Source: an uncultured bacterium (GTDB lineage Bacteria > Patescibacteriota > Minisyncoccia > UBA6257 > 2-01-FULL-56-20). From it: a stretch of DNA of 64,000 nt. Shown here piece after piece: positions 13,530 through 35,006 of the stretch. The DNA lies in assembly GCA_963718575.1 (NCBI GenBank), contig OY970358.1:29718-93717 (forward strand), in the 5' to 3' direction. The position numbers were made by a program, and so were the translations under genes. Each line of letters begins with the position of its first letter. Position 1 is the stretch's first letter. The notes beneath the pieces are model-generated. The model was not told the DNA's origin and did not search any database. It worked only from the letters and a program-made list of their open reading frames with translations.

Positions 13530-13540
13530 ATTATTAATCG

Positions 13541-16350: not shown

Positions 16351-16364
16351 ATGAAAAAGGCCCA

Positions 16365-16766: not shown

Positions 16767-16782
16767 CTTTTGAAAAAGCTAT

Positions 16783-17263: not shown

Positions 17264-17297
17264 GTGCGGGGTATCGGACCAGGTTCGAACCTATTTT
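17264..17297. repeat. tRNA-3'-end-like repeat, copy C
   Basis: gtgcggggtatcggaccaggttcgaacctatttttt. Confidence 0.7.
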
Positions 17298-17322
17298 TTG
17301 ACAGTTTTCGAAGAGTTCATAT

Positions 17323-17976
17323 CTACTCCTTTTTTAAAACGACCAAAAATTCAATCACATCATTATCGTGAATTCCAAAAGGGGCTTTAACTCTCCAATC
17401 GGAAGCGGTAATGGGTGCTGTCCCAACTGCTTCAAGCACCGTTCCATTATAGCTTGTGGTGAATGCAATGGTTACCGGATGGGTAATGCCGTCGATGGTG
17501 AGCGATCCGGGTGCGGTCGATGAAATGGTTTGGCCGCTGGAAGCAAGGCCAGCGAGCGCGATGGGGGCTGTTAGCGTGAGCGTCGCATTCGGGTACGTAT
17601 TGGTATCGAGAATTTGTAGGAGGCTAGGATACGGTTTGCCGCCCATCGTTAATTGACTGAGATCGGCTTGGAATGTTCCCGATGAAATCTCGTCATTTAC
17701 AATGACAAGCGAGCCGGTTACCGCGCTTGTGCGCCCCACAATCACGCTGCTCTGCGTAAGGAACGATTCATTCACTCGAAAGCCGGCAATTGAACCACTC
17801 GTCGCTAACCAAGTGCCGTCAGCCGAGGTCGTGATTGTTGTCTCCGTGTTCAGTTGTGGCAATTGCAATGGAGGTGCCGTTGGACCCGCCAATGATCCGG
17901 GAAAGATAAGAAGCGCGATAATCACAATCGCGCAAATTGCGACAATGCCGATCATGATCCACATGAATATTTTCAT
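17323..17976 (-). CDS. YceI-like domain protein with N-terminal TM anchor
   Basis: TM helix, then a beta-rich domain with YceI-family-like pattern (GFRVNESF...VIVGRTSAVTGSL...). Confidence 0.5.
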   Translation of the reverse strand: MKIFMWIMIGIVAICAIVIIALLIFPGSLAGPTAPPLQLPQLNTETTITTSADGTWLATSGSIAGFRVNESFLTQSSVIVGRTSAVTGSLVIVNDEISSGTFQADLSQLTMGGKPYPSLLQILDTNTYPNATLTLTAPIALAGLASSGQTISSTAPGSLTIDGITHPVTIAFTTSYNGTVLEAVGTAPITASDWRVKAPFGIHDNDVIEFLVVLKKE

Positions 17977-18410
17977 TTATAAAGATAGTGGGGATTGCCG
18001 GGTTCGGTGACCGTCAGCAGGTCGAAGTATTCTCTGATCTTGGTGAATTTGCCGTCTTTGATATCACAACTTAATACTATTGGAATATTGACCATCGTGC
18101 CCGGGGCTGGTCTATTGGTAGATGCTGGCCATTTGTCCGTGACAACGGCCTTGTGCACATATTCCCAAATAAGCTTCGTCCCTTCGGCGTCAGTGAAGAC
18201 ATTGAAAGGCAGAAGTCCTTCCCCTGTGCCATGTGTCCGTGCAGCCACCGATCGCGTTGCGAGCTCCCGAATCTTGTCGAGTCCTTTAAACGTCTCACCG
18301 GTGGCCATGACCACCCACTCCCCGTCCGGCGACCAAAGCTTCATCATGTCCTCGACCCCTTCGTGGGTCATCGCTTCAGTAAACGCCTTAACAAAATCTT
18401 CGGTATTCAT
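17973..18410 (-). CDS. NTF2/SnoaL-like fold protein
   Basis: 145 aa, alpha+beta cone pattern (FTEAMTHEGVEDMMKLWSPDGEWV...). Overlaps the downstream gene by 4 nt. Confidence 0.45.
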   Translation of the reverse strand: MNTEDFVKAFTEAMTHEGVEDMMKLWSPDGEWVVMATGETFKGLDKIRELATRSVAARTHGTGEGLLPFNVFTDAEGTKLIWEYVHKAVVTDKWPASTNRPAPGTMVNIPIVLSCDIKDGKFTKIREYFDLLTVTEPGNPHYLYK

Positions 18411-18647
18411 ATTTTTTTAGGTTAATAGTTTTTAATCCTCGACCCTATCAACGCCGTTCGAGAGATAAAGATATTACCGCCGTAAAGGCAGCATAGCTTT
18501 AGATAAAGTTTTAATGTATTAAAAGGATTTTGTGCGCGGAGAGGATTCACCCGCGAGTCTTGCGCTCGCGCAAGCTCTGGGCACCGGCTCGGCAAATTTT
18601 TCTGCTGAAAAATTTTCCTCCGCCGTTCGAATCCCCTTCAGAACAGG

Positions 18648-18714
18648 CAAACAAAATAGGCTTTGTTCGAGCGTCCCGAAGGGTGTCTTGCTCGAACAAA
18701 GCCTATTTTGTTTG
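18648..18714. repeat. perfect 25-bp inverted repeat with 17-nt loop
   Basis: caaacaaaataggctttgttcgagc-gtcccgaagggtgtctt-gctcgaacaaagcctattttgtttg, immediately abutting repeat copy D. Confidence 0.8.
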
Positions 18715-18716
18715 CG

Positions 18717-18750
18717 GTGCGGGGTATCGGATCAGGTTCGAACCTATTTC
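18717..18750. repeat. tRNA-3'-end-like repeat, copy D
   Basis: gtgcggggtatcggatcaggttcgaacctatttc. Overlaps the stop of the NUDIX gene. Confidence 0.7.
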
Positions 18751-19181
18751 TCCCTATAAAACTTCCCCTTCTGAATATCCTCTATCGCCTGTTTTGTATA
18801 AGGCATCGTATTGGGAGGCAAATTATCAATCGGAAACCAGCCACATTCATCGCACTTTTCCGGTTCCATATTACTCGGTTCACCACTCCATTTTTCACAG
18901 AGAAAAAAGAAGTCATCGTATTCCATATCCGTTCCGCCATAGTCCAATCGGTGCATGGCGTGCACAAAAGAAATATCTTCAGGAAGCGCATCAATACCCA
19001 CTTCCTCTTTCGCTTCACGGATAGCGGCAATTGAAGGTTGTTCATCTTTTTCAACATGACCAGAGGGCAATCCATACTTGCCATCTTCATAACCAGTGTT
19101 CGCGCGACGTAAAAGGAAAATCTGATTGTCGCGTTTTAAAACAAGATATGCCGCAACGTAAACTTTATGATGATTGCTCAT
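18744..19181 (-). CDS. NUDIX hydrolase
   Basis: Nudix box GLPSGHVEKDEQPSIAAIREAKEEVGI (GX5EX7REUXEEXGU). Confidence 0.8.
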   Translation of the reverse strand: MSNHHKVYVAAYLVLKRDNQIFLLRRANTGYEDGKYGLPSGHVEKDEQPSIAAIREAKEEVGIDALPEDISFVHAMHRLDYGGTDMEYDDFFFLCEKWSGEPSNMEPEKCDECGWFPIDNLPPNTMPYTKQAIEDIQKGKFYREK

Positions 19182-19210
19182 TCCAAAATTATATCACTTG
19201 TTGATATTTT

Positions 19211-19260
19211 GCGTTAAACGGATTTTGTGCGGGGTATCGGACCAGGTTCGAACCTATTTT
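19211..19260. repeat. tRNA-3'-end-like repeat with conserved flank, copy E
   Basis: gcgttaaacggattttgtgcggggtatcggaccaggttcgaacctatttt. Confidence 0.7.
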
Positions 19261-19312
19261 ATACAGTTTTCCAACAATTCCGTCTTTTAATTTTGCGATA
19301 TAAAACACCCCT

Positions 19313-19726
19313 CTATTCTCTACTGCCAAAATCTTCAAGAGTTTCCACCTCATTGGGGGTTTTAGGATTGGCCCAAAAATTAATGGTGTCTCTTATTTTC
19401 TCATCAACCAGTTCCTTTATAGCCTGCTCAGCTCCTTCCCTGGTCTCGGGGCTAGCCAAATCCCCAATGATTTTTTCTGCTATCAATTTTCCTTCAGCTG
19501 CAGCCTCATCATAGAATCTTCCATATGTTTCCCGACCAAAAACATCGCCAGGGTGTTCTGCTTTAAATTCTTCTCCAGCCCGATACGCTTTTAATGCTGC
19601 CCTCAAACCTATGCGCCTCATCTGCTGGTCAAGAGAAAGAGGTTTTAAAGCTTCTCCCTCCGCTTGCGGCTTTATACTTTCCATATCCATATGAGTTAAA
19701 TTTAACAAACAGGAATATAATGTCAA
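19313..19726 (-). CDS. hypothetical acidic protein
   Basis: 137-aa ORF with no motifs. Probable start at MDMESIKPQ. Confidence 0.35.
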   Translation of the reverse strand: MTLYSCLLNLTHMDMESIKPQAEGEALKPLSLDQQMRRIGLRAALKAYRAGEEFKAEHPGDVFGRETYGRFYDEAAAEGKLIAEKIIGDLASPETREGAEQAIKELVDEKIRDTINFWANPKTPNEVETLEDFGSRE

Positions 19727-19796
19727 CCAAGATGCGATGTTGGCTGTTATAGCTCGTTCAGTTTGAACTGATTTCCAGAAAATGAGCTTTGATGAG

Positions 19797-20228
19797 CTAC
19801 CCTACTAACCTAGTTCCCGTGACCTTATAGCCTCCTCCCGGCCATTCCCATGCTGCGGAAAAACTATTTCCGCTGGGGTCGAAAATACTCTTCATATGAT
19901 TATCGGAACCTTTATGACCAAACCAGACCGTGAGAATATTGTCGGTAAGTTCATAAACGTAATCGAGCGTCAGGCCATCAAGGGAACTGTAAAAGCGACT
20001 CCATATTTCTTTACTTGGTCGTTCATTGGGCTGCTTCATATGGCCAATGATTTCGATGCCTTTTATTTTTCTCCCACCGTAGTTTAGATCAACGTGTTGC
20101 ACGAGGAAAAATTCGCCCTCCATCCATTCATATTTGATCTGGCCCTGCGCATCGCCCGATATTTTCCATGTACCGACCAATCGATTAAGGGCTTTGATAT
20201 CTGAGTCTAGCGAATCTATTTTCATCAT
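19797..20228 (-). CDS. hypothetical protein, beta-barrel/lipocalin-like pattern
   Basis: 143 aa, alternating beta pattern with Trp/Gly motifs (GTWKISGDAQG...WEWPGGGYKV). Confidence 0.35.
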   Translation of the reverse strand: MMKIDSLDSDIKALNRLVGTWKISGDAQGQIKYEWMEGEFFLVQHVDLNYGGRKIKGIEIIGHMKQPNERPSKEIWSRFYSSLDGLTLDYVYELTDNILTVWFGHKGSDNHMKSIFDPSGNSFSAAWEWPGGGYKVTGTRLVG

Positions 20229-20280
20229 AAATATATTTTAGCAAAATGGAGCCCAAATTGTATGGGCTATTACTTTTAAT

Positions 20281-20340
20281 GCGTTAAACGGAATTTGTGC
20301 GGGGTATCGGACCAGGTTCGAACCTATTTTTTAAGAAATA
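20281..20340. repeat. tRNA-3'-end-like repeat with conserved flank, copy F
   Basis: gcgttaaacggaatttgtgcggggtatcggaccaggttcgaacctatttttt. Confidence 0.7.
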
Positions 20341-20600
20341 TAGAGGGGAACAGCCGAAGCTATTCCCCTCTCGTATGATGACGCCGCCCTAAACTACAGG
20401 GCGGAGGTGCGTCTGGGTAAGACGGCTAAGGGCTGAGTGGTAATGCCACTCACTTTTGGGCGGTTCCCTCAATCTAAACCACAGAGAGAGGTTTGCGTTC
20501 GCCTTTCGTGAACGCGGCCCAGCGATTGACCCCACTCTGCACCCCTGCAGAACGGAATCTTCATAAGATTATCTACCGATATAGTACTCCTATTTTAGAA
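20341..20600 (+). ncRNA. candidate structured RNA; RNase P RNA-like motifs (very tentative)
   Basis: ORF-free 330 bp. Opens with a 9-bp hairpin agaggggaa..ttcccctct. Then, in RNase P order: ACAGGGCGGAGGUGC, GGGUAAGACGGCUAAGGGCUGAGUGGUAAUGCCACUC, and GCAGAACGG. The second resembles AGGUAAGGGUGAAAGGGUGCGGUAAGAGCGCACC. The region between the P4-like and P10-12-like parts is far too short for a canonical type-A RNA. Confidence 0.25.
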
Positions 20601-20669
20601 TTTCGTCAAGCATATTTCACTTTAAGATCCAAACTTCCACTTTACAAATTATCCTTCAAAGGATAAAAT

Positions 20670-21170
20670 ATGGGCAGAAACTTAATTCCAGACTCGGATG
20701 AGTCAAAGAGCGGATGCTCAGGAGGAACAATGTTCTATTACGCAGGCACGAGAGAAGAACATCGGTGGCGCAAATGGCAGAAAATATTCACCGATTTCCC
20801 GTGGCTCTATGCCGTTAAGAGCAATTGGGATTATAAATCGGACAATGTGCGGATCACCAACAATTTCGGCGACCTGAAAGTGTTGCTACTTTCTCCTGCA
20901 AGGGATGAAAGCGTCGAAATTTGGATATACGGAGAAACGATGTATCCACCCAGAATATTTTGTCAGGCCAGCTGGGTGGTGAAAGCTTCGCACTCTGACG
21001 GGAAGACGCTCTGGGCAGAACAGGTCGCGGGGAACGGCAACCCATACGAAGTGGTTCGCTACGTGGTCGTCAAATTTGCCCATGACTCCCATTACACCAT
21101 CTATCGCGACAAAGAGGATCTCAATCTCGAAGGGTGGATCAATCGTTTGTCTGAAACACATCCCTTTTAA
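20670..21170 (+). CDS. hypothetical protein
   Basis: 166-aa ORF, the only plus-strand gene in the island, followed by a hairpin plus T-run. Confidence 0.45.
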   Translation: MGRNLIPDSDESKSGCSGGTMFYYAGTREEHRWRKWQKIFTDFPWLYAVKSNWDYKSDNVRITNNFGDLKVLLLSPARDESVEIWIYGETMYPPRIFCQASWVVKASHSDGKTLWAEQVAGNGNPYEVVRYVVVKFAHDSHYTIYRDKEDLNLEGWINRLSETHPF

Positions 21171-21226
21171 GGAGCGTCGCCGATGACGTCCAACCTCTTT
21201 TTGCTTCCGCCAGATTTTCTGGCACA

Positions 21227-21260
21227 AACCCCAACCATTACGGCTGGGGTTTTTCTTATT
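21227..21260 (+). terminator. intrinsic terminator-like hairpin + T-run
   Basis: aaccccaaccattacggctggggtttttcttatt. Confidence 0.45.
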
Positions 21261-21293
21261 GAAAAATATTTTTTATCTGTTAAACGGATTTTG

Positions 21294-21377
21294 TGCGCCG
21301 GGCAGGATTCGAACCTGCGTAGCCCATAGGGCGAAAGATTTACAGTCTTTTGCGATTGACCACTCCGCCACCGACGC
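21294..21377 (-). tRNA. tRNA-Tyr (anticodon GUA), long variable arm, CCA not encoded
   Basis: Reverse complement folds as acceptor GCGUCGG/CCGGCGC, D-arm with a long loop, anticodon stem AAAGA/UCUUU with loop CUGUAAA, variable arm GCCCUAUGGGC, and T-arm GCAGG-UUCGAAU-CCUGC. Confidence 0.8.
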
Positions 21378-21396
21378 AATGTTTTCTATCCCAACA

Positions 21397-21723
21397 CTAT
21401 TCTTCCGAACCCTCCTTATTCTGCCCGCTCATCTCTTTAAAATCAATGTTCGGGCGCTTGTCCTCTTCCGGTTTGATCTTTTGAAGATGCTTTGCGAGCG
21501 TGTTGTCCAGTTTTAAGATGAGTACTTTTATGCGCCGCAGAAACTTCAAAAGGAAATTATTGAATGCGGCATCGATCTTTTCCGGCATCTCGGAATGCGC
21601 CCAGCGTTCAAGAAATCCTTTTTCCTCTGTCGGTACCTCTTCGATGCGCGGCAGAACCTGCACCGTCAGGTACAGCACGGTTCCCAGGCAGATCATAAGG
21701 ATGATAGTGAAGATGATTTCCAT
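21397..21723 (-). CDS. hypothetical small membrane protein
   Basis: N-terminal TM helix, then a charged C-terminus. Confidence 0.4.
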   Translation of the reverse strand: MEIIFTIILMICLGTVLYLTVQVLPRIEEVPTEEKGFLERWAHSEMPEKIDAAFNNFLLKFLRRIKVLILKLDNTLAKHLQKIKPEEDKRPNIDFKEMSGQNKEGSEE

Positions 21724-21746
21724 AAAATGGATGCGCGCCGCGTACG

Positions 21747-22208
21747 TTACGCTTCGACGCGATAGAATTCGCCGACGGTGACGTTCTCCCCCACCTTCGC
21801 GATCACTTCACCCACCACATCCTTCACTGTCCGCGACTCATCCTTTACATACGGCTGCGCAAGCAATTCCTCGACGTCCTTCGGAGCCGCCGCCGCGATA
21901 TGCATCGCAAGGTCATGTGCCAACGCCCTGAACGGCTCCGAGCGGACCACGAAGTCCGTCTCCGCGCTCAGACGGAGCAGGACGCCGATGCGCTCGTTGT
22001 GCACATATGACTGCACCAGGCCCGCGCCGGTCTCTCGATCCGCACGCTTTTCCACCTTTGCCAGTCCTTTCTCGTGAATGATCTTGACTGCGGCGTCGAT
22101 GTTGCCGTCAGCCTCGATGAGCGCCTTGCGGCAATCCATCACTCCTGCGCTCGTGATATCGCGCAATTTTTGAACCATCTCCGCCGTCACCGTTGTTTTG
22201 GTTTCCAT
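21747..22208 (-). CDS. tsf: translation elongation factor Ts (short form)
   Basis: N-terminal UBA-like MVQKLRDITSAGVMDCRKAL. 153 aa, about half the E. coli length, consistent with reduced-genome lineages. Confidence 0.8.
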   Translation of the reverse strand: METKTTVTAEMVQKLRDITSAGVMDCRKALIEADGNIDAAVKIIHEKGLAKVEKRADRETGAGLVQSYVHNERIGVLLRLSAETDFVVRSEPFRALAHDLAMHIAAAAPKDVEELLAQPYVKDESRTVKDVVGEVIAKVGENVTVGEFYRVEA

Positions 22209-22263
22209 AGTTTCAAATTATACTACATTACCTTTCCGCCCGCATCCTCGTGCGGCCGCACGA

Positions 22264-23043
22264 CTATTTTTCCTGTGCCGGAGCGGAAGCTTTCGCGGTT
22301 GCTTCCGCTGCTTTTGCCTCTGCCGCCACTGCGCGCATCTTCACTCCCTCTTCATAGGCTTTTCCGACGCGCTCCAAAAACCATTCAATACTCTTCTTTG
22401 CCTTATCGTTACCCGGAACGACATACGTGATCTTGTCCGGATCTGCATCCACGTTTGCGAGCGCAATCACGGGGATCTTCTTCGTAATTGCTTCGCTCAC
22501 TGCCGTGTGGTGCAGGATCGGGTCGATAACGACCACGACATCCGGTTCCTTCGTCATCAATTCGAGGCCACCCATCAATTCTTCCAAGCGCCGCATCTCG
22601 CGCTCCATTTCCAAACGTTCTTTCTTTGTATACTTTCCGACGAGCGCGCCGGATGCGAGATCGGTGCGAAGCTGTTTAAGGCGCTCAACACGCTTTGCGA
22701 TGATCTTGAAGTTCGTGATCGCACCCCCGACCCAGCGGGTCGTGACATACGGGATGTTGAGCTTCTTTGCGAGCGTGAGAACGCTCGTCTCTGCCGCCGG
22801 CTCGGTGCCGACGAGGAGTACCAGGCCGTTGTTGTGCACCCGTTCTTTGATGAACGCCGCTGCGGCATCCATCATCTCTTCCGTTTTCTGGAGGTTAATG
22901 ATCTCGATCCCGCCGCGATTGCCCAACACGAACGGACGCATCTTCGGGTTCGTCTTGCTCTTTTTGCGTCCATAAAAAACACCCGCATCCATCATTTCGC
23001 GGGATCCTTCCGCCGGATATCCCGACGTCTGGTTGTTTTGCAT
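22264..23043 (-). CDS. rpsB: 30S ribosomal protein S2
   Basis: MMDAGVFYGRKKSKTNPKM... Canonical tsf-rpsB order. Start chosen at the internal Met. Confidence 0.9.
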   Translation of the reverse strand: MQNNQTSGYPAEGSREMMDAGVFYGRKKSKTNPKMRPFVLGNRGGIEIINLQKTEEMMDAAAAFIKERVHNNGLVLLVGTEPAAETSVLTLAKKLNIPYVTTRWVGGAITNFKIIAKRVERLKQLRTDLASGALVGKYTKKERLEMEREMRRLEELMGGLELMTKEPDVVVVIDPILHHTAVSEAITKKIPVIALANVDADPDKITYVVPGNDKAKKSIEWFLERVGKAYEEGVKMRAVAAEAKAAEATAKASAPAQEK

Positions 23044-23164
23044 CGATACTACTGTGTCTTCTGGCATAGGAGAAAGTATACCAAATGGTGCAGGATAGTC
23101 AAATCAATAAATAAAAAGGCCCGCTCAAAGAGAGTGGGCCACCAACCGAAGGGTTGGATTTGAA

Positions 23165-23755
23165 TTAGCGAAGGAACAAAGCGGGCTTTCCGGGCAGTTT
23201 CCCGTAGAATAACCGGTATGCCTGTATGAGTGAGATGGGTGAAAATTGCATCCCCTGATAAGCAAGCCGTGGAATATACAGCTCACAGAACTCGATATGG
23301 CACCCCTCTACCAGCTTACGGTATTCCTCCATTGTGCCTGTTAAAAGACTTCCAAGTTGTCCGTGCCTTACTGGGTCGTCGGTGAAGAATGCAGTGAATA
23401 CTGGCGCAGGAATAATTCTCCTGGTGCCAAGATTCCTGTGATACTCAGCTTCATACCTCCACCACTCCCTATAATCGGAATCAAGAACGGCCGCGGTCAC
23501 ACTGTTGTGCGTATAGACCCGGATGATAGGAACCGGAGACACGGATTCAACTGTCGTGTCATGCCATGTTGTTATGTAGTAGGACAGCGACACAATTGCG
23601 GAAATCGCGAAGGTCGCTATCGTAAAAGTGATGAGACCATTCGGGTCGGGTAACGTTTTGGTGTGCCACGCGAGAAAAAAGAAAAGACATGTAGCAAGAA
23701 TAGTCCATGCCAATGCAAGCCTTGCCTTTAGATTCCCTGAAAAATTTTTTGACAT
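23165..23755 (-). CDS. hypothetical membrane protein
   Basis: Two or three TM helices and an aromatic-rich C-terminus. Confidence 0.4.
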   Translation of the reverse strand: MSKNFSGNLKARLALAWTILATCLFFFLAWHTKTLPDPNGLITFTIATFAISAIVSLSYYITTWHDTTVESVSPVPIIRVYTHNSVTAAVLDSDYREWWRYEAEYHRNLGTRRIIPAPVFTAFFTDDPVRHGQLGSLLTGTMEEYRKLVEGCHIEFCELYIPRLAYQGMQFSPISLIQAYRLFYGKLPGKPALFLR

Positions 23756-23921
23756 TGCCCCGCTCCTTATGATGGCCGCCTGTCTCATTTCCCCGTGGGG
23801 TAGCTTCTCTTACGAAAAGATTGTTGAGTTCAGGATTTACGCCGCGCCGAAAGGGCAATTTCAGCTGAAAGTATTATATCATCTATAATACTAATATGTC
23901 AACTTCTATCAGCGGCTTTCT

Positions 23922-24982
23922 CTAATGCGATAGGAAGAATATCACTAACCCGAGTGCACAGAAGACGGCGCTCACGATCCAGAAGCGCATGGTCACCTGC
24001 GACTCGGGCCAGCCGAGCGCCTCGAAGTGATGATGGATCGGCGCGGAGCGGAAGACTTTTTTGCCGTGCCGGAGCTTCTTTGAGATCACCTGGATGATGA
24101 CGGACAGCGATTCAATGACGAGGATGATGGTGAAAAATGGAAGGATGAGCGTGGTGTTCGTGAGCATGGCGATGACGCCGATCGTGATGCCGAGCGACAT
24201 CGAGCCGGTGTCGCCCATGAAGAACTTTGCGGGATAGATGTTGAACCAGAGGAACGCGAGCAGTGCTCCGATGATCACCCCGCAGAACGCCGCGAGGTCG
24301 TAGCTGTGAAGCACGAATGCCACCGTGGCGAGCGATACGAAGGCAAACAGCGATACGCCGCCGAGCAGGCCGTCCAGGCCATCGGTCTCGTTCGCGCTGA
24401 ACGCCGCTGCAAAGATGATGAAAATAAAAATCGGGATATACCACCACCCGATCGTCACGTTGCCGATAAACGGGATCGCAAGCACATTCCAGCCGAGGCG
24501 GAAATAAAACCACCACGCGCCGATAAGCGCGATGAGCAGATAACCGACCGCCTTTTGGCGGATCTTCAATCCCCCGCCGGACGCGCCGCCAAGTTTCAAC
24601 ACGTCAGCCAATCGTCGAGCAATCCAAGAAGCGCCGCGATGAGGAATGCGGCGATCGGCAGATAGGTTTGCGCGCGATCGACGAAGTTAAAATAGGTCCA
24701 GCGCCGCCAAAAAGATGGCGCATGATATCGAAGAAGATCGCCATGCGCGATCACCGTAGTCCAGATGATCAGTCCGCCGCTTGTCGGCGTACCCGCTTTG
24801 TTCTTATGCAATTCGGCGAACACCGGCGCTCCCCCGCCGCTGCGCAATTGTTTCCCAAATTTATATTTAATGATGAATTTATACCAGAGCGGCGTGACAA
24901 GGAGCGCGATGATGAATGAGAGCGTGGTGAGGATCGTGACGCGCACCGCTTCGCTGAGCAACAATGATTGCATAAGTAACAT
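23922..24982 (-). pseudogene. mraY: phospho-N-acetylmuramoyl-pentapeptide transferase MraY, split by one apparent frameshift near 24600
   Basis: N-terminal part (24982..24596) ends ...LGLLDDWLTC. C-terminal part (24611..23922) carries DGLDGLAGG, MGDTGS and HHHFE motifs. The two are in different frames and overlap by 16 nt. Confidence 0.75.
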
Positions 24983-25090
24983 TTTTTCGGGAATTATTTA
25001 TAGTCGGTTCTGAACCATAAGTATAGCGCCGAAGTATCCTCGAATGGAAGTGCCGGCGCGCCGAGCACGGTGATGAACACCGGGTGGCCC

Positions 25091-26026
25091 TCATAATCGA
25101 ATATTGATAAGAAGATTTCCGCCTGCCTGCGGCGTGTTGCCGGTCTTTCCGCCGATGAATGCAGGCTCGCCGGCAAAAACATTGATGCTCTTTACCGCAA
25201 TCTTTTTCCGCGAATTCAATTCGGTGATCGTCGTCGCCGGCGTGTCGGTGAGCGCAAGAATTTCCGGATAATCGGCATAGACGTGCTGGGCGAGGATCAA
25301 AAGATCGTTCGCGGTCGATTCATTTGCGGCGGAGATGCCGGACGGATCGGCAAAATAGGTGTCCGTCATCCCCCATGCTGTCGCGCGCGCGTTCATCTCG
25401 TTCATAAATTGCGCCTGGCCGATATAATCCGCCATCGCTTGCGCGGCCACGTTGCTCGACGGCATGAGCAATAAGTGTAAAAGATCCTCGACGGTGTACG
25501 TGCCGCCGATCACAAGCGTCTGTTCGGTCGGATCTGCCGCGAACATCTGCGGCGTGATCGTGATCGTGTGTCGTCGGTGTCAGTTGATCGAGCACGAGCG
25601 TCGCGGTCATGAGCTTGGTGAGCGACGCGGTCGGCCAGCGGCTTGCGTCGTTCGAACCGGCGAGCACCGCGCCGGTCGTAAGGTCGGCCACCATATATGA
25701 TTCGTTGGTGAAGATCGGCAATGGTGTCGTCTCGGTCTTTGAGAATACCGAATTGATGAGCGTGGTCGACGGGCTGGGGTTTGTAATGGTGCTCGTCACT
25801 GCGTTCTCGGCGCTGACCATCGCCCCGGTTGCGGTGTCTCCTACGGACGTTTGCGGCAGAACGAGCGTCGGCGGTTCGGTCGATGCCTGCGCATCGGCCG
25901 TCTGCGGGCGTGATCATTCCTCGCAACCGCCGGAACGCCTGAAAGGTTGGGATATACCAGGCGTGCAAAAAAGATCGCACCGATCACAACAAATAAAAAA
26001 ATGAATTTCTCGTGGTTTTTTAACAT
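25091..26026 (-). pseudogene. serine-type D-Ala-D-Ala carboxypeptidase (PBP5/6-like) with at least three frameshifts
   Basis: Signal peptide MLKNHEKFIFLFVVIGAIFFA, SLTK (SxxK), SAAN (SxN-like) and KTG motifs are spread across three different frames between 26026 and 25091. Confidence 0.6.
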
Positions 26027-26040
26027 GATAATTGCGAACT

Positions 26041-26643
26041 ACTACTGCGTCGTCGGAGCGGTCGCATCCGTAGTGCTTCCGGAGCTCTCGGCGGACGCGC
26101 TCTCCGTCTTCGGCGCGTCGAACACTTTCAATAGTTCCTGGAACTTCTCGTAATCCGGCAGACCCTCCTTTTCTTTTATCCCAAGATGCTTCATGAGGTC
26201 GAACGTGCCGCGATAGAGAAAGCTCGGCCGGATGCTCCGGGTCGGGAAATCGCTCCACGAGCCCGCGGATCATCAAGACTGCGCAAAATAACGATCGAGT
26301 TCACGCCGCGCAGATATTCCAGTCGCGCGCGCGAGATCGGCCCGAGGTACGCAATGATAGAGAGCGCCTCGAGTGACGCAGGCGAAAGATCCTCGGAGAT
26401 CTCCTCCTTCATAAAGCTTTCAAGGATGCTGTTGAACTCCGGCTTGGTGGCAAGCTGGATCTTCTCGCGGTCGGAAACGAGCTGAAGTCCGCGCGTATCG
26501 GCGTCGAGGTCGGCTTCGAGCTCTTTGATGATCGCTTCGAGCTCCTCTTTTTCTATCCCCAAAACCGACTGTATTTTTTTATACGAGAGTGGTTCTCCGT
26601 GGATGAATAGCAATGCCTCAAGTGATGCCCGTCCGTTTTTCAT
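26041..26643 (-). pseudogene. scpB: segregation and condensation protein B with two frameshifts near the 3' end
   Basis: MKNGRASLEALLFIHGEPLSYKKIQ... winged-helix N-terminus. The C-terminal 60 aa (DLMKHLGIKEKEGLPDYEKF...APTTQ) is recoverable only in another frame. Confidence 0.65.
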
Positions 26644-26653
26644 GAAAAGTTAA

Positions 26654-27427
26654 TTATTTTTTCTTCACCATTATATCAGAAAAATTATCCATTTGCTCCA
26701 GGAGCACGAGCTGTTCGCGCGCGAGGTGAAGGATCGCGAGGAAGACCACGATCATCTCGCCCCGCGATTTATCGCCGGACAGCTGATTGAAGTGCATATC
26801 CCCTTCCTTTTGGATGCGTCCGAGCACCTCCGTGATCTTTTCCTCGAGCGTAATGATTTTCTCGTGGATCGTTTCCGTTTCGAGATCGTACGTCTTGATC
26901 GTATCGAAAATGCCGCCGAGTCGCTGTCGGTAAGCGCCTCCATAGTGAGGTTCTCGCCCGGATAGAACATTGTCTGTCCCGGAACGATTCCCGTGCCGCG
27001 GCCAATGAAGTACGGACGGCTGAACGAGTGGTGGCTCGTCGGCCAAAGCTCTGTTGATCAGCTTGATCGCGGGCTTGAGCTGTTGATAGATGTGCAGGCG
27101 CGATTCGAGGTCTTTGATGTCCGCCTCTTCTTCTTCCGACAGCGCCAAGCCCGGCAATAAATATTTTGATTTGAGGAAGATCAGTTTGCTCGCGACGGAA
27201 ACAAAGTCTGCGAGCACGCGGAGGTCGATGCGGAATTTATTTTCCGCGTCTGCCGCACTTTCCGCGTTTACATCAAGCCCGCCTTTAAACGTCTCCAGAT
27301 AGCGCAAAAAATCGTCCGTGACCTTGGCGAGACTGACCTCGTTGATATCCATCTTCTCCGCCTCAATCAGCTCCAAAAGCTTCTCAAGCGGCCCGCTGAA
27401 CTCCCCTACGCGCGTTTCATATTCCAT
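26654..27427 (-). CDS. scpA: segregation and condensation protein A
   Basis: 257 aa with ScpA-like N- and C-termini. The central 30 aa (around 26920-27000) read better in another frame, so a compensated frameshift pair is possible. Confidence 0.65.
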   Translation of the reverse strand: MEYETRVGEFSGPLEKLLELIEAEKMDINEVSLAKVTDDFLRYLETFKGGLDVNAESAADAENKFRIDLRVLADFVSVASKLIFLKSKYLLPGLALSEEEEADIKDLESRLHIYQQLKPAIKLINRALADEPPLVQPSVLHWPRHGNRSGTDNVLSGREPHYGGAYRQRLGGIFDTIKTYDLETETIHEKIITLEEKITEVLGRIQKEGDMHFNQLSGDKSRGEMIVVFLAILHLAREQLVLLEQMDNFSDIMVKKK

Positions 27428-27475
27428 AGATGGATGACTATTGCGTTTATCATAAGAAAATTTTGAATATAAATA

Positions 27476-27512
27476 AAGAAAAGCCCCGCGAATGGCAAGC
27501 GCGGGGCTTTTC
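27476..27512. terminator. bidirectional terminator-like hairpin
   Basis: aaaagccccgcg-aatggcaa-gcgcggggctttt. Lies downstream of a possible 38-aa minus-strand membrane-peptide ORF (27527..27643). Confidence 0.45.
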
Positions 27513-27669
27513 CGGGGCTAGTGAAAACAGTTGGGGTGAGCGATGAGCAAAAAGCACATAAGTGGAACCCCCACAACGATTGAGAAAAATATAATTTTTC
27601 TCATCTTCGGAGAGTGGGTCCTCATTTCCGGCATTATGATATTCTCCTCTATGGAATTATGACATATAT

Positions 27670-27697
27670 TTGATATTTAAGCAACTACAGCTATAAT
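27670..27697 (+). promoter_or_regulatory. sigma70-like promoter for dnaX
   Basis: TTGATA-N16-TATAAT, ending 9 nt upstream of the dnaX ATG. Confidence 0.5.
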
Positions 27698-27705
27698 GAT
27701 TTCAC

Positions 27706-28847
27706 ATGGCACAAGCTCTCTACCGCAAATATCGCCCGCAGAAGCTCGACGACGTCCTCGGCCAGGAGACGAACGTTGAGATCCTTAAGAACGCGGCGAA
27801 GGCGGGGCGGCTTGGGCAGGCCTACATTTTTTATGGCGCGCGCGGGACGGGCAAGACGACGACGGCGCGGCTGATCGCAAAACTGCTCAATTGCGAAAAG
27901 CGGCGCACGGATCCGGAGTTCGCCAAGCTCGGCGAGCCGTGCAACGAATGCCGGGAGTGTCTGGCGATCGACGCGCAGAATTCGTTCGACGTGGTGGAGA
28001 TCGACGCGGCGTCCAATCGCGGTATCGACGAGATCCGCAACCTTAAGGAAAACATCCGCACTTCCCCCGCGAGCGCCGAGCACAAAGTTTATATTATAGA
28101 CGAGGCGCACATGTTGACCGGCGCGGCGTTCAATGCCCTGCTCAAAACATTGGAAGAGCCGCCCAACGCACGCGGTGATCATTTTGGCAACAACGGAGTT
28201 TGAAAAACTTCCGCCGACGATCACGTCGCGCGCGCAACGATTTGTGTTCAAAAAATTAATAAGGCAACGATCATCGAAAAGCTGACGTCGATCGCCGGAA
28301 AGGAAAAAATAAAAATAGACGAGCCGGCGATCGAGCTCATTGCCGCAGCGGCGGAAGGCAGCTTCCGCGATGCGGAGTCGTTGCTCGATCAGATCTCGTC
28401 AGTGAGCGGCGGGGTCGGCGCAGGCGGTACATCCGCCGGCGCAAAAGGCATCACGCTCGCCGATGCGGAGCGCGTCACCGGCCGCACCGGCCTCAAGAAA
28501 GTGCACGAGATGGCGGAGTTCATCGTTAAAAAAGATGTCAAAGGCGCGCTGGGCTATCTGAACGAGCTGAACGAAGATGGCCACAACCTTGGTGCAGTTT
28601 ACAAAGGACCTCATCCATTACTTGCGCAAAGTGCTGTCGCTCAAGGTCAATCCGTCGCTCAAGCCGTGATGGAGCGCGACCTCACGCGTGACGAAGTTGC
28701 CGGCGCGCATCGCGCTCGGCGCGGCCGCGGACGTTGCCACGCTCGTGAAGTTCGATGAAGGCGCTCATCCGCGCGTATGCCGAGATGCGCTACTCCCCGT
28801 TCGCCATCGTGCCGCTCGAAGTGGCGCTCGTGGAGAATCTGGCGTAG
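27706..28847 (+). pseudogene. dnaX: DNA polymerase III gamma/tau subunit with multiple compensating frameshifts
   Basis: Intact AAA+ N-terminus (GARGTGKTT, DEAH box) up to EEPPNA. Around 28167 an extra A shifts the frame: [29 protein letters not shown] reads in frame +2. At aaaaaattaataagg around 28250 a missing A returns it to frame 1. At least two further shifts follow after 28600. Confidence 0.75.
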
Positions 28848-28872
28848 ACAAATCGCGCTCGGTGCGTATAAT
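28845..28872 (+). promoter_or_regulatory. sigma70-like promoter for tRNA-Gln
   Basis: TAGACA-N16-TATAAT. The -35 overlaps the dnaX stop codon. Confidence 0.4.
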
Positions 28873-28893
28873 AAGAAGCGTTCGCAATACCAT

Positions 28894-28964
28894 TGCCGGA
28901 TCATCTAATGGTAGGATAGTGGACTCTGAATCCATTCATCTTGGTTCGAATCCAAGTCCGGCAG
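28894..28964 (+). tRNA. tRNA-Gln (anticodon CUG), U1:A72
   Basis: Acceptor UGCCGGA/UCCGGCA, U8, 3-bp D-stem with GG in the loop, anticodon stem GUGGA/UCCAU with loop CUCUGAA, T-arm CUUGG-UUCGAAU-CCAAG, discriminator G. Confidence 0.6.
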
Positions 28965-29049
28965 CTAGCTGTAGTGTGGTGATGCTCAATATAGCGGACT
29001 CATTGTCGAGCCAGTCGCCAGCTAATATGGATTTACTCAAATCGAAAGC

Positions 29050-29086
29050 GGCGATCCCCTCAAAAGGGCGCCATCTTTTTCTTTCC
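29050..29086 (+). terminator. intrinsic terminator-like hairpin + T-run
   Basis: ggcgatcccctcaaaagggcgcc followed by atctttttctttcc. Confidence 0.4.
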
Positions 29087-29093
29087 GTCTTTA

Positions 29094-29612
29094 TTATTTG
29101 ATAGTCACTGCACTCGTCAGCCCTTCTTCGATCAACGTAAAGAGAGCTTCGGGCGTACCGCTCCATTCGCCGGAAGGACCGAACACTCCTGCAAAGGGAA
29201 CGGTCGGCATGGTGGGGTTATAGAAGTTGCCATCAATTTTTACTTCACTGCACTGGCTTAAGAAATCTTGTAGCGCCTCGAACGTCTCGTGCGCTATCTC
29301 CCCGCCAGTAATGGAGACGTCGGGATGTCCTTCTTGGATTTTTATCGCAAGTTTTACGTTGTGGGCATTTTTGAACTCCCCTTCTAAATCCATGAGCGCC
29401 AACCGGAGATCCCATGCCTTTCTTTTTGATGCTTCAATATTCTTCTTCCAGAGGTCCGGATACTCCCTTCGTTCCATCCGATCCATCATTGCCTCTTTCA
29501 TCAAAACGCTTTCGTCTTTCTTTGCGGCAAATTCCTCTAAAAACTCCTGATCGCTCACCGCCGGTTCTTCGGCCTCTTCTTTTTCCTCGAACGCCGCAGT
29601 TTCGAAATTCAT
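29094..29612 (-). CDS. hypothetical acidic protein (last gene of the pilus operon)
   Basis: 172-aa ORF with no motifs. 21-nt gap to the upstream pilin gene. Confidence 0.4.
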   Translation of the reverse strand: MNFETAAFEEKEEAEEPAVSDQEFLEEFAAKKDESVLMKEAMMDRMERREYPDLWKKNIEASKRKAWDLRLALMDLEGEFKNAHNVKLAIKIQEGHPDVSITGGEIAHETFEALQDFLSQCSEVKIDGNFYNPTMPTVPFAGVFGPSGEWSGTPEALFTLIEEGLTSAVTIK

Positions 29613-29632: not shown

Positions 29633-30118
29633 TTATCGGGTAACGGAAACCGTCTTTCCAAGTTCCGCATATGGTGCGGCGACGGTGATCTGTGTGGTGC
29701 TCGGGTTATATACGACCGTGTAGCCGGTGTTATAGTCGGTGTTCGACGTGTAGTGGGCTCCCGAAGCTACCGGATCGAACGGCATGGTTTGGAGATAGGT
29801 TGGCACAAGGCACGGTGCTATGTTATAGCTTCCGCTTGCGGATGCCATGATCTGCGGGGTGCCCGTCGGAAGCGATCCCGAGGTACACGAGAACACGCCC
29901 GTCGTCTGATCCGCGATATTTTGCCGCACCGCGTTCATGATGCCCTGCAGCTCGAGCGAGCGCTGGGTATTACGCGACGCCGCAAGCTGACCCACGGGAT
30001 TCAGCGCCAAGAGTCCGATCCCCGCAGTGATGACGACGAGCGCGATCGCGATCAAAATCTCGATCAACGACAACCCGCGCCGAGGAGACAACCGTTTCAT
30101 TTTTTTATTGTACCTCAT
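29633..30118 (-). CDS. type IV pilin-like / pseudopilin (prepilin N-terminal motif)
   Basis: RRGLSLIEILIAIALVVITAGI class III signal with the hydrophobic N-terminal helix. Confidence 0.65.
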   Translation of the reverse strand: MRYNKKMKRLSPRRGLSLIEILIAIALVVITAGIGLLALNPVGQLAASRNTQRSLELQGIMNAVRQNIADQTTGVFSCTSGSLPTGTPQIMASASGSYNIAPCLVPTYLQTMPFDPVASGAHYTSNTDYNTGYTVVYNPSTTQITVAAPYAELGKTVSVTR

Positions 30119-31508
30119 CCCATGAAATGATGGAGTACTGATTCGTGGATAATGGGAAGCTTGGCGGCGGCCCGTATAATAAATTCGCGTCATAGTTATA
30201 GCTTCGGCTCTGATAGCCGTCGGTCGCCGAGTAATAAAACCCTGATTGCAGATTGCTTGCGAGCATGCCGTCCGTCGTGAGCGTTGCGCGCGCGGCGTTC
30301 GTGCCGCATCCGCTGTATGAATAGCGCTGGATCGCGCCGTTTATCGCCACGAGCGCCCCGTCGATCGTAAGGTTGTTGTCGCTCACGAGCCCGATGTTGA
30401 TGTTGTTCTGTGAAACGAGCGCGAGCGTGTCGCTCCCGTTGAAGTTGGTATACACCGTGGACGAATTCACCGTGATACTCGAATAGGTCGTCGGGTTGCT
30501 CGGGAATCGCGCCGATGCGATCGTTACGCGTTTATCATTGATCTGTCCCCTCACCCAGAGGTTGTCCTGAAAGAACATATCGCCGTTCGACGGGATCGTG
30601 CCGGTCGCGATGAGCGTCTCGGTCTTTATGCTCCACGTTCCCCATCCGGTTTGTCCGGGGTTATTGCACCCGCCCGGCGCAGACGTGAGTGCCGTCACTT
30701 TATAGACGCTGTAGATCCCGCTCGTCGCAAGCGCGAGGTCGTATCCTTGTGCCGTGGAGCTCGGGAAATAGGTTCCGCTCGCTTGTGCGAGCGCCTCGAT
30801 GCTTGAAAGGTTCTCCGTGAGCGCAGTGAAGTCGATTGCCGGAACGCCAACCTTCCTCCCCGCCTGGAAAATAGTTTGGTTGGTCGGTAGCGCGGTCGGC
30901 GGCTGTGGATCCGCCGGCGGGCCGTCGGTGAAGACCGCCCACTGGGTGAGTCCGGTGCTGGGATCGGTCGTTGTGGTGAGCGAACTTTCAACGAGGTTAT
31001 GGGCGGTGCCATCGAAATGGATGCCCGCATTCGACTGGATCGTGCCGTAAACCTGCGCTCCGGTGCCGAACTCGACGAACGAGTCGAGCGCCCATGCATA
31101 TTGCGCGAACGACGGGATCGCCATCTCAACTTTGATTATTTTCGTGATGCTCGGGTCGGCGACGATATTGCCGGTGCTTTGGATAATCACCACGGTCGAG
31201 CCCGGCGGCGGCGGCGTGATCGCAAGCGTGAACGTGCCGATAAGATTCCCGCTCTCATCGTAATAATTATGGACGTATGGCCCGGCTCGTCCCGTGCCGT
31301 CCTCGAAATCCTCCGGCGCGTGGGCAAGATGCCATTGATAATATTCAATCCCGGCTTCCGCAATGCTGAACGCGCGCAGCTTATTGAGCGATCGTACGGA
31401 GCTCTGCAGGAACGATGAAGAGAGGAAAATGAGCCCGGTGATGAATGTCACCGCGAGCGCGGCGAAAAAAATGACGGTGACCGCGAGCTGGCCTCTGCGC
31501 TTATTCAT
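30105..31508 (-). CDS. large pilin-like protein with N-terminal TM helix
   Basis: MNKRRGQLAVTVIFFAALAVTFITGLIFL, then ~440 aa of beta-rich, Thr/Ser/Asn-rich sequence. Confidence 0.5.
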   Translation of the reverse strand: MNKRRGQLAVTVIFFAALAVTFITGLIFLSSSFLQSSVRSLNKLRAFSIAEAGIEYYQWHLAHAPEDFEDGTGRAGPYVHNYYDESGNLIGTFTLAITPPPPGSTVVIIQSTGNIVADPSITKIIKVEMAIPSFAQYAWALDSFVEFGTGAQVYGTIQSNAGIHFDGTAHNLVESSLTTTTDPSTGLTQWAVFTDGPPADPQPPTALPTNQTIFQAGRKVGVPAIDFTALTENLSSIEALAQASGTYFPSSTAQGYDLALATSGIYSVYKVTALTSAPGGCNNPGQTGWGTWSIKTETLIATGTIPSNGDMFFQDNLWVRGQINDKRVTIASARFPSNPTTYSSITVNSSTVYTNFNGSDTLALVSQNNINIGLVSDNNLTIDGALVAINGAIQRYSYSGCGTNAARATLTTDGMLASNLQSGFYYSATDGYQSRSYNYDANLLYGPPPSFPLSTNQYSIISWDEVQ

Positions 31509-32118
31509 TGGTTCGGAGGTTCCGTATGTCGACCATTTGTGAGAAATATTGCGGGATCGGGGTGCTTGACGGATTGACGGCGGCATAGAATGAAAATTGC
31601 ACGAGGCGGATGTTCGCGACGGTGATCGGATAGCTCATCGGCGCCTGAGTGCCGGTGTAATTCGTGTCATAGTAGGTGAAGAACACCGTCGATGAGCTCA
31701 GTATGAGGTTATTGATCTGGGTGGTCACGATCTCGGTGGAGGTCACATATGCCAATGGATTTCCGGACGGAATGGTGATCCCTTCCTGCAACGTGCTTGT
31801 TCCCAAAAAATAACGGACTCTTTCAAATGTGCCGTTCCGGTAAATATCGCTATAGAAGATGAACGAGCTCGTGCCGGCGGATTCGATCGGATAGCCGCCA
31901 ATGCTCGATGGTCCGGCGGAACGGATGGCGGTCGTCATAAGCTGGATGGTCTGGGTGATATCCTGGCTCGATTGCAATTTTTGGCTTGTAATGGTCTGGA
32001 GTGATGTAAGGTTCCCCTGGAATGAGCTGAGGATGAAAATAAACGCCACGCCGATAAGGCTTGCGATGAGCACTTCGACGAGAGAAAATCCATTCCTTGC
32101 ATCAGTGTGACGCGGCAT
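31501..32118 (-). CDS. type IV minor pilin-like protein
   Basis: ARNGFSLVEVLIASLIGVAFIFIL prepilin-type N-terminus. Confidence 0.6.
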   Translation of the reverse strand: MPRHTDARNGFSLVEVLIASLIGVAFIFILSSFQGNLTSLQTITSQKLQSSQDITQTIQLMTTAIRSAGPSSIGGYPIESAGTSSFIFYSDIYRNGTFERVRYFLGTSTLQEGITIPSGNPLAYVTSTEIVTTQINNLILSSSTVFFTYYDTNYTGTQAPMSYPITVANIRLVQFSFYAAVNPSSTPIPQYFSQMVDIRNLRTNE

Positions 32119-32119
32119 A

Positions 32120-33867
32120 TTATTGGTGGGTAAGATCGACGGTTGTCGCCTGGGCATTGGCGGAAATCGTGACCGACGACGTCGCCTGGATATAATTCGG
32201 TGCGCTCACGGTAAGGAGATACGACCCGGACGAAAGACCGGAAAAGAGCGTCTGATATTGCGGCACGCATTGCGAAGAAAAACCGATCGTCACATCGTTC
32301 ACGGAGGGCGATGTGGTCGGATCTTGCGTGCTTAAAAATACTTTATACCGGAAATAGCGATCGCCGCCCAGGTTGACGATGGTGGAAGATGCCGTGTAAT
32401 AGGTATTGCCCGTGCCGTCGGGACCGACGAAATTCCATGTTACATCATCGTTGTTCGCCGCAAGCTGGAATGCCGCGCTTCCCGCGCCGGTCGAAGTCGG
32501 TTCCACGGCAGGATTCACATTCAGCGAAATATAATTGGCGGTCGACGTCCCAAAGTCGATCGTGTTTGAAATGAGCCAGTTTATCGTGCCGGTGGCGTAC
32601 GTTCCCGATGCGTTCGCAAGCAGTTGGATCGTTCCCGGCACTGATTGAGTGTCAATGCCGCCGCTTTGCGAAGCATACGCGCCGTTCGCCCAGTTGGTAT
32701 CCGTCCATGTGCTTTGTCCCGCGGTGAGGGTCTGCTGAGAACGATCCGCCGGACATTGTTACTGTCGCTCCGGGCACGCCGTCGCCCGTCGCGGCATCCG
32801 CTATGCTCACCAGGAGCGATTTCGGGACTACTTGGCGTGAGGACAAAGTCGAATGAGATCGTCGAACTAGGATTGATCGTCAGCGGGCTGAACGGAGTGG
32901 TTCCTAACAACGCGTAGGATGACGAGGTAAGCGTGAATGCATAGGTGTCCCATTCCATATTTGGGAAGGATGCGGTGCCGGAAGCGTTTGTGGCGGAGCT
33001 CGTGGAAAATTTCAGTACGTTCGGATTTGTGCCGATCAGCTTCGATCCCGCAATACTGAATCCTGTGCCGCCGATATCGGCGCAGACGTTGTTCGTCGTC
33101 AAAACCGTGAGTGCGCTCGTCCGGTCTATCGAAAAACTTGCCGTCGAAAGTTGTTGCTGTGCCACCGTGATATTCGGCTGGACCGGGGTGGAGCTTCCCA
33201 GGGCTCCTATTGAATAGCTCTGCGCCGAAGAATATCCGGGTTTCGAGACAAAGATCTGATACCCCTGCGTACTCGTGGGGACGCCGACAAGCTGAAGCGT
33301 GCCGCTGTCGTTCGTAGCGTCGGTGAGGTTCACCGCTGGCGTGATGTCGGAATTCACCACGGTCACGTTCGCGTTCGGAACCCCGTTGCCATTGGAGTCG
33401 AATATGTTGATAAAAAGGGATCCTTGTCCAAGCGTGCTTTGCAGTCCCACCGGGGCAAAGGTCGTCGTGAGGGAAAGCGGATTGAAGTTCTGGCACGTAG
33501 GACAACTGATCGTGAGTTGAACCTGTTTATAGTCGACCGTTCCGGTCGGTTCGCCGAATCCCTGTCCGGCGGGATCTTCGATATTGAGGATTTGCGTCCC
33601 CATGACGAAGTTATAATCGGCGTACGATATGGTTTGTGTGGCGGGGATAATGCCCGACGGGATGCCGTTCACCGTGCCGATGTCCGCATAGGGCAGGTCG
33701 CGCATCGTCTCGATCTGCTGGTTCATCACTGCGGTCGCGCCGTTCCTGACCTGAATGTTATTGATGGCGCCGTAAAGGGAAAAATAGACAAGATAGATCG
33801 CGCCGAACAGGAACGCCACGATGGCGATACTGACCACCACGTCGATCAAGCTTGACCCTTTCTTCAT
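32120..33867 (-). pseudogene. large pilin-like protein (~580 aa) interrupted by about two frameshifts at 32640-32850
   Basis: N-terminus MKKGSSLIDVVVSIAIVAFLFGAIYLVY is pilin-like. After ~350 aa the frame degenerates into Arg-rich nonsense, while ORFs 32652..32846 and 32120..32641 continue the Thr/Ser-rich beta sequence in other frames. Confidence 0.5.
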
Positions 33868-35006
33868 TGTGAAATGTTCGAGGAGATGGCGTAGATCGGA
33901 GTGATGATGGAGATCGCGACGAAACCGACAAGCAATCCCATGAAGAGCAGCATCACGGGTTCGATGATCGTCGTCATGGAGTCGAGTCCGTAGCTCACTT
34001 CTTCCTCATAATATTCGGCGACATACACCAGATTCTCATTCAGGTTTCCGGTTGCCTCCCCGATCTGGATCATTCCGGTGACGAACGGCGGAAAGAGCTT
34101 CGCTTTTTTTTCGAGGAACGGGGCGAGCGCACCGCCGCGGCCGATCTCCTGGCTTGCTTCGTCAACAAACTTCCGATAGACAAGATTGTCGAACGTCTTG
34201 CCGGTGATGACAAGCGCTTCGGCGATCTTCACGCCGCTCTTGAGCAGTAATGAAAATATGCGCGCGAAGTTCACCATATTGAGGCTTATGGAAAGTTTTG
34301 AAAGCACGGGGGTGAGCAGGATGAGGTTATGCATGGCGTAGCGGAACGGTTCGACGTGCTTGAGCAACAACCGGAAGACGATGATAAGGATAATGAGGGC
34401 CGCGATACAGTAAAGGCCGTAGCTCGTGAAGAACGTGATTCCCGCGAGGAGCAGCTGGGTCGAAGCGGGCAGCGGCGCTCCGGAGCCGGTGAGCGCGGGC
34501 AGCAGTTTTGGAAATACGAAGAACGCGAGGAATGCCGTTACGCCGAGCGTCGCGACGAGGATGATCATCGGGTAGACCATCGCGGACTTTATCTTGCGCT
34601 TAAGATTCCTTCGTTTCTTTGTTTCGTCAGAAAGATAGAGCAGGTTCTGCGCGAGCGTGCCGCTTGCCTCCCCCACGCGCACGACGCTGATGAAAAAATC
34701 CCCGAATACGTCATGAAAATGTTCCAGGCCGTCGGCAAAGAAAAGGCCGTTTGACACGTCCTTCGCCAGCTGGTCGATGATCTTTATGAGCTTCGGCGAT
34801 TGGGACTGCTTTCGCAGGATGACCAGGCCGTCATAGAGCGGGATGCCCGCCTTGATGATAATGGCAAGATGGCGCGCAAAATCTATCTTGTCCTGATCGG
34901 AGATGCTTTCGTTAAAAAGACCGAGGTGAAAAGGTTTTTTCTTTGGCTTCGGAGATTGCGGCGACACTGGCGGCCGAGGCGGCGTCGGGACGGGGACATT
35001 ATTCAT
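33864..35006 (-). CDS. pilC: type IV pilus assembly / type II secretion platform protein (GspF/PilC family)
   Basis: Two GspF-like repeats (FARHLAIIIKAGIPLYDGL...) and three TM segments. Confidence 0.85.
   Translation of the reverse strand: MNNVPVPTPPRPPVSPQSPKPKKKPFHLGLFNESISDQDKIDFARHLAIIIKAGIPLYDGLVILRKQSQSPKLIKIIDQLAKDVSNGLFFADGLEHFHDVFGDFFISVVRVGEASGTLAQNLLYLSDETKKRRNLKRKIKSAMVYPMIILVATLGVTAFLAFFVFPKLLPALTGSGAPLPASTQLLLAGITFFTSYGLYCIAALIILIIVFRLLLKHVEPFRYAMHNLILLTPVLSKLSISLNMVNFARIFSLLLKSGVKIAEALVITGKTFDNLVYRKFVDEASQEIGRGGALAPFLEKKAKLFPPFVTGMIQIGEATGNLNENLVYVAEYYEEEVSYGLDSMTTIIEPVMLLFMGLLVGFVAISIITPIYAISSNISQ

Follow-up and report, generated by a model that had tools for sequence, protein, structure and literature searches.

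We analysed a stretch of 64,000 nucleotides from an uncultured bacterium (contig OY970358.1; hereafter the window), in which five conserved genes, mraY, a D-Ala-D-Ala carboxypeptidase of the penicillin-binding protein (PBP) type, scpB, scpA and dnaX, can be read only by switching reading frames. The frameshifts are very probably consensus or polishing artefacts at sites where two co-occurring haplotypes differ, not mutations, and the organism almost certainly has a normal mraY, PBP, scpA, scpB and dnaX. The same genes are intact in other assemblies, the single-base insertions and deletions (indels) that break them lie on variable positions, and at most insertion sites the inserted base is the alternative allele. 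An earlier reading of this sequence, the original prediction, had preferred a sequencing or consensus artefact to gene decay; this preference is borne out by the intact genes in independent assemblies of the same population.

Frame changes in the window and intact copies elsewhere

The nearest relatives of the contig carry the labels Candidatus Paceibacterota or Minisyncoccia, and the window belongs to the Patescibacteria. Between 23.9 and 28.85 kb the gene order is mraY, the S11 D-Ala-D-Ala carboxypeptidase, scpB and scpA, all on the minus strand, followed by dnaX on the plus strand and then a tRNA-Gln gene. Each of the five genes is split into pieces lying in different frames, as seen from the list of open reading frames (ORFs) and from Pfam matches on the fragments. 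Their identities are upheld by significant Pfam matches (PF00953, PF00768, PF04079, PF02616 and PF13177, respectively) and, after frame joining, by full-length collinearity with the orthologues on L004, a contig of a related species that shares ~80% DNA identity with the window and has the five genes intact; this contig and a second one, L085, served as outgroups. Frameshift-aware protein-to-DNA alignment of the L004 orthologues read all five genes end to end with 0 stop codons and needed 16 frame changes. The claim that the genes are readable only by frame switching is therefore confirmed by the Pfam matches on fragments, by this alignment and by the near-identical contigs on which the indels were located.

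The phospho-MurNAc-pentapeptide translocase gene mraY (23922..24982, minus strand) contains three indels, an insertion at 24745 and deletions at ~24702 and ~24603, where a single shift had been proposed. The carboxypeptidase gene (PBP5/6-like; 24994..26026, minus strand) contains four single-base insertions (25911, 25905, 25569 and 25111), in line with the expected three or more, and scpB (26042..26643, minus strand) has exactly the two anticipated, both single-base insertions (26274 and 26224). In scpA (26654..27427, minus strand), named before as only possibly affected and now definitely so, the PF02616 match is split in two and there are three single-base insertions (27051, ~26929 and 26920), which amount to a net shift of +3 and leave the ORF open with ~43 codons out of frame. 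The last codons of scpA are also touched by a difference in the length of an A/T run at 26657-26662 (KKK* in the window and in L004 versus KKNN* in the comparator contig L086), which is possibly a real polymorphism and not an error. The gene dnaX (27706..28847, plus strand), which encodes a short gamma/tau clamp-loader ATPase of ~379 residues, has six indels where at least four had been counted: insertions at 28162-28166, 28591, 28709 and 28756, and deletions at 28257 and 28662. Its first two shifts have opposite signs, as had been proposed (+1 at 28162-28166 and -1 at 28257), but the supposed missing A is a change of TTAAAT to TTAAT, and the neighbouring A6 run is unchanged in intact copies. 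Similarly, the idea that the indels form compensating pairs fits the first four dnaX shifts, which alternate between +1 and -1, and scpA, the only gene that is net in frame, but not the net shifts of mraY (-1), PBP (+4), scpB (+2) and dnaX as a whole (+2).

In the same gene, the window and L004 share the N-terminal 153 residues of DnaX (~155 in the frameshift-aware alignment) with 100% identity at only ~83% DNA identity (window 27706-28164 versus L004 4382-4840), a comparison that points to extreme purifying selection on the ATPase core. Programmed frameshifting or slippage in dnaX was considered and excluded, the six sites sharing no common motif and the orthologues and same-population copies being one uninterrupted ORF.

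The protein encoded by rpsB, which adjoins the region, was found unchanged in several public short-contig assemblies, showing that the same population has been assembled elsewhere. The comparators were taken from JGI 3300041431 (L086, 15 kb) and from the Logan assemblies of ERR11563597 (L087; L090, 7.6 kb), SRR13781587 (L088), SRR7027795 (L089) and ERR10755938 (L084). A search with the repaired DnaX retrieved a 97% identical protein of 379 residues on L084, where dnaX is intact, and a second intact copy lies on L090; wherever the two contigs overlap, L090 independently gives the same six dnaX indels and the same substitutions as L084. The PBP fragment of the window (P0270, 151 residues), which is on record on an 881,652-bp NCBI/ENA contig, shares a 90% cluster with an intact PBP of 342 residues (P0286) that is present on four contigs from four samples (L086 to L089). 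Intact mraY (350-353 residues) was found in L086 and L088, intact scpB (199 residues) in L086 and L087, and intact scpA (257 residues) among the comparators in L086 only. Throughout L084 and L086 to L090 the genes are uninterrupted, and wherever the window differs from these contigs, they are all in agreement. Comparison with related genomes at the indel positions, one of the checks that the original prediction had suggested, thus found the indels missing from independent assemblies of the same population and the frames intact in the L004 orthologues too.

The form carried by these public assemblies, hereafter haplotype A, is 99.9-100% identical across the contigs L001 to L003 and L086 to L100 over window positions 1-53622, from at least seven accessions that include JGI 3300041431, 3300018047 and 3300017948, ENA ERZ27249988 and ERZ27250077, and several Logan runs. 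Judged by these sequences, the population of haplotype A, a member of the candidate phyla radiation (CPR), appears remarkably clonal and widespread. The short-read contigs break within or at the edges of the region described below: L086 ends at window position 28155, L084 starts at 27227, and L087 to L089 end at 26350-26760 and 23721-24142. Such breaks would fit strain heterogeneity at the locus in those samples too.

Substitutions and indels in a divergent block

Differences between the window and the near-identical contigs were mapped over a total of 48,986 bases. Positions 1-10358 differ from L092 by 1 substitution and positions 14995-24239 from L086 by 3, both with 0 indels; positions 28757-53622 differ from L090, L091 and L095 by 8 substitutions and 3 indels, and the comparison of positions 28757-29549 with L084 gave 0 of either. 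Positions 24240-28756, compared with L086, L084 and L090, contain 83 substitutions and 19 indels and form a divergent haplotype block. The 19 single-base indels span 24603-28756; at 15 of them the window has an inserted base and at 4 a deleted one. Of all 22 indels, 19 fall within 4,517 bases, 9% of the sequence compared (binomial P=2.5 × 10−17). The density of single-nucleotide polymorphisms (SNPs) is 1.8% in the block versus 0.027% in the 44 kb of compared flanks, and indel density follows SNP density along the contig; accordingly, the indel share of variable sites is equal within the block (19/102, 0.19) and outside it (3/15, 0.20). The indels would thus cluster because the SNPs cluster, and five essential genes are broken where they lie in a strongly divergent block.

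The divergence of the block climbs to ~5.5% in the 3' half of dnaX (28164-28703), and the window alleles within the block are often outgroup-like. A divergent block with outgroup-like alleles suggests import by homologous recombination, which is probably how the block arose in an otherwise near-clonal population. Read in the intact frame, 58 of the 83 block substitutions are synonymous and 25 nonsynonymous, with 17, 9 and 57 falling on codon positions 1, 2 and 3, respectively (chi-square P=4 × 10−11); the window residue equals that of an outgroup (L004 or L085) at 16 of the 25 nonsynonymous sites. This pattern, together with the outgroup-like residues, shows that the block substitutions are real alleles and that the window holds a genuine second haplotype, haplotype B, across the block. 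The five frame-repaired genes contain 0 stop codons, and a search in them for relaxed selection or nonsense codons of the kind expected in pseudogenes found neither. Haplotype B has evolved under purifying selection in an uninterrupted frame, also over the stretches that the window has out of frame.

Homopolymer errors do not account for the indels. Only 1 of the 28 homopolymers of at least 5 nt in the block differs in length, the other 27 being the same as in the other assemblies, and most indels are found in runs of 1-2 bases; the earlier statement that they mark changes in homopolymer length does not hold. Basecalling may also fail systematically, as in Nanopore data, at homopolymers or at methylated motifs such as Dam GATC; in favour of this, GATC is very frequent (609 occurrences in the whole window or 9.5 per kb, more than twice the ~4 per kb estimated from base composition) and 6 of the 19 indels lie within 8 nt of one. 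This proximity is not enriched (simulation P=0.21), however, only the one long homopolymer is affected, and both GATC and homopolymers occur throughout the window, most of which is free of indels; we therefore give basecalling errors next to no weight.

The positions of the indels follow the variation between strains and species. Of 18 coding indel sites, 13 fall in codons for which haplotype A and the outgroups have different sequences, where 4.4 would be expected (P=3 × 10−5). At 12 of 16 insertion sites, one of which really belongs to a substitution cluster, the extra base is the outgroup nucleotide at an adjacent position that differs in haplotype A (4.5 expected; P=1 × 10−5), and each of the four true deletions takes away a nucleotide that is not the same in haplotype A and the outgroups. 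For example, a scpB codon that is GGC (Gly) in haplotype A and AGC (Ser) in the outgroups reads G-A-GC in the window, and a dnaX codon that is CTC (Leu) in haplotype A and ATC (Ile) in the outgroups reads C-ATC. These outgroup-allele tests replaced a weaker test for the presence of both alleles, which asked whether a synonymous alternative was available at the insertion (5 of 13 non-homopolymer sites) and was judged uninformative.

An insertion-dominated set of mostly single-base, non-homopolymer indels in a sharp local cluster is also what one would see if an unpolished or locally low-coverage long-read patch, such as a gap filled by few noisy reads, had kept random residual errors unrelated to strain variation. 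Errors of this kind would not concentrate on codons and nucleotides variable among strains and species, nor would the inserted base equal the alternative allele; furthermore, the block substitutions are real alleles rather than noise, and indels make up an equal share of the variable sites in the block and beyond it. We regard this source as unlikely, and uniformly low coverage is a poor fit to ~44 kb of compared flanks with only three indels. Among the artefact causes that had been offered earlier, collapsed strain heterogeneity is favoured by indels on polymorphic positions in a divergent block, but long-read homopolymer errors and uniformly low coverage are not.

Over all 22 indels, insertions outnumber deletions 18 to 4 (P=0.004 versus 1:1). 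Bacterial mutation is usually deletion-biased, the opposite of this excess. This matters for the reading in which the frameshifts are genuine, haplotype B being a degenerating or dying lineage with five pseudogenes or one that tolerates frameshifts by recoding. The deposited sequence does, after all, contain the indels, and the assemblies searched yielded no copy of exactly haplotype B that lacks them. The affected genes, however, are five essential single-copy genes at their native locus (within the window only dnaX has any second match, a weak holB-like one at 7963-8457), they are intact in other assemblies, and their repaired frames show neither relaxed selection nor a stop codon. In addition, the stretch between the first two dnaX shifts covers a conserved segment of 25 residues, the insertion bias counts against this reading, and the placement of indels on polymorphic positions, where they duplicate the alternative allele, is a pattern that real mutation would not yield. 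Finally, there are 22 indels to 95 substitutions, a ratio that greatly exceeds what is normal for coding regions of strains so nearly identical; in prokaryotes, true mutations are for the most part substitutions (PMC12424758). Genuine frameshifts are highly improbable on this evidence, and that haplotype B is a real lineage truly carrying ~20 of them, either as a recently dead or dying clone or as a frameshift-tolerant or recoding organism, is barely credible. If it were true, the coincidence of indels with variable sites would reflect an unknown mutational process that copies or drops bases at mismatches, such as error-prone repair of mismatches or heteroduplexes once the imported block had recombined.

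Proposed origin of the frameshifts and its consequences

In the explanation that we favour, a consensus artefact of two haplotypes, the source reads, or the draft together with the polishing reads, would have come from two haplotypes within a single Paceibacteria-like population. One, haplotype A, is the widespread form in other public assemblies; the other, haplotype B, would be nearly identical to A elsewhere and ~2% diverged from it over 4.5 kb from mraY to dnaX. Alternatively, reads of one haplotype could have been used to polish a draft of the other. The B allele would have entered the consensus at about four in five variable positions, giving ordinary and mostly synonymous substitutions; the remaining fifth or so would have been mis-resolved, with both alleles written side by side as a one-base insertion, or with neither written, leaving a one-base deletion. 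The single contig of 881,652 bp, a length that corresponds to a whole genome in this group and is typical of long-read metagenome-assembled genomes (MAGs), suggests that the source is a long-read MAG. Polishing errors under strain heterogeneity have been described for long-read metagenome assemblers (PMC12424758), and ORFs cut short by indels are a known artefact of long-read data (PMC9262707).

Several points weigh against this explanation. That both haplotypes were present in the source sample is inferred from assembled sequence. We are also unaware of any polisher documented to place the two alleles of a SNP one after the other. The insertion sites at 25911, 25569 and 28162 and the run at 26657 have no matching outgroup allele. 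Haplotype B was absent from all other assemblies searched, including as an indel-free copy. Exact look-ups of ORF fragments of the window (the N-terminal dnaX fragment, a scpB fragment and P0270) returned no matching contig, and scans of JGI metagenome contigs gave no match to a haplotype-B-specific 28-mer, nor to a 26-mer common to the window, L084 and L090. Moreover, further consensus indels may lie in the 15 kb outside the comparison (positions 10359-14994 and 53623-64000). Exact look-ups of the proteins encoded at 48818-50398 and 54178-55794 found no match, which may reflect only the choice of start codon.

The cluster is not confined to 23922-28847, the range first given for it: positions 32734, 32828 and 35054 each carry a further insertion. 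Those at 32734 (G) and 32828 (C) are single-base insertions in a CarboxypepD_reg-containing gene on the minus strand, whose product of 581 residues is uninterrupted elsewhere (L090 and L095 agree). Two CarboxypepD_reg matches lie on neighbouring ORFs at this 32.7 kb split; a Pfam survey of doubtful junctions between ORFs in the rest of the window reported no split families and overlooked it, the split being shown later by DNA comparison. The insertion at 35054 is a T (TT to TTT) on the minus strand, ~50 nt before the stop codon of a T2SSE-type ATPase gene, and alters its C-terminal codons (L090, L091 and L095 agree). The surrounding interval, 29633-36547 on the minus strand, resembles a type IV pilus or type II secretion cluster, with a T2SSF platform protein, the T2SSE ATPase, large unannotated proteins and a putative prepilin-like protein recognised by eye from its translation.

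Taken together, the frameshift cluster is no biological feature; its value lies in a warning about data quality and in an error signature that can be read from sequence. A public single-contig CPR genome has at least eight genes broken by consensus errors within the 49 kb compared, and such errors risk being misread as pseudogenes or genome decay and lower completeness estimates. Artefacts of this type could be flagged where reads are not at hand by a signature of three parts: indels occur only in blocks where strains diverge, insertions add the alternative allele, and deletions take away a base at a variable position.

Comparison with known systems

Genuine pseudogene accumulation is known from degenerating genomes such as those of Mycobacterium leprae and recent endosymbionts. 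The window resembles these in that many conserved genes are frameshifted, but it differs from them in showing no relaxed selection and no nonsense codon, in its bias towards insertion rather than deletion, in the essential, single-copy nature of the affected genes, and in having its indels on polymorphic positions of a strain-variable block. Programmed -1 ribosomal frameshifting or transcriptional slippage is likewise a known property of dnaX, at the A AAA AAG site in Escherichia coli and at an A run in Thermus. Here too dnaX is involved and one shift adjoins an A6 run (28250-28255); however, this run is equally long in the intact orthologous copies, and those need no shift, the six sites lack a common slippery motif, and the dnaX of the window is a short form of ~379 residues without the tau-specific C-terminal domains.

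Homopolymer-length errors, as in Nanopore R9, 454 and Ion Torrent data, likewise produce one-base indels, apparent frameshifts and truncated proteins (PMC9262707), but in the window only 1 of the 19 block indels lies in a homopolymer of at least 5 nt. Strain-collapsed consensus errors of long-read assemblies (for example, with metaFlye; PMC12424758) differ in that the signature described here is readable from the sequence by itself and was not found described in the literature examined; they share with the window ORF-truncating single-base indels in a highly contiguous MAG, which lie within a microdiverse region and are lacking where the same organism was assembled from short reads.

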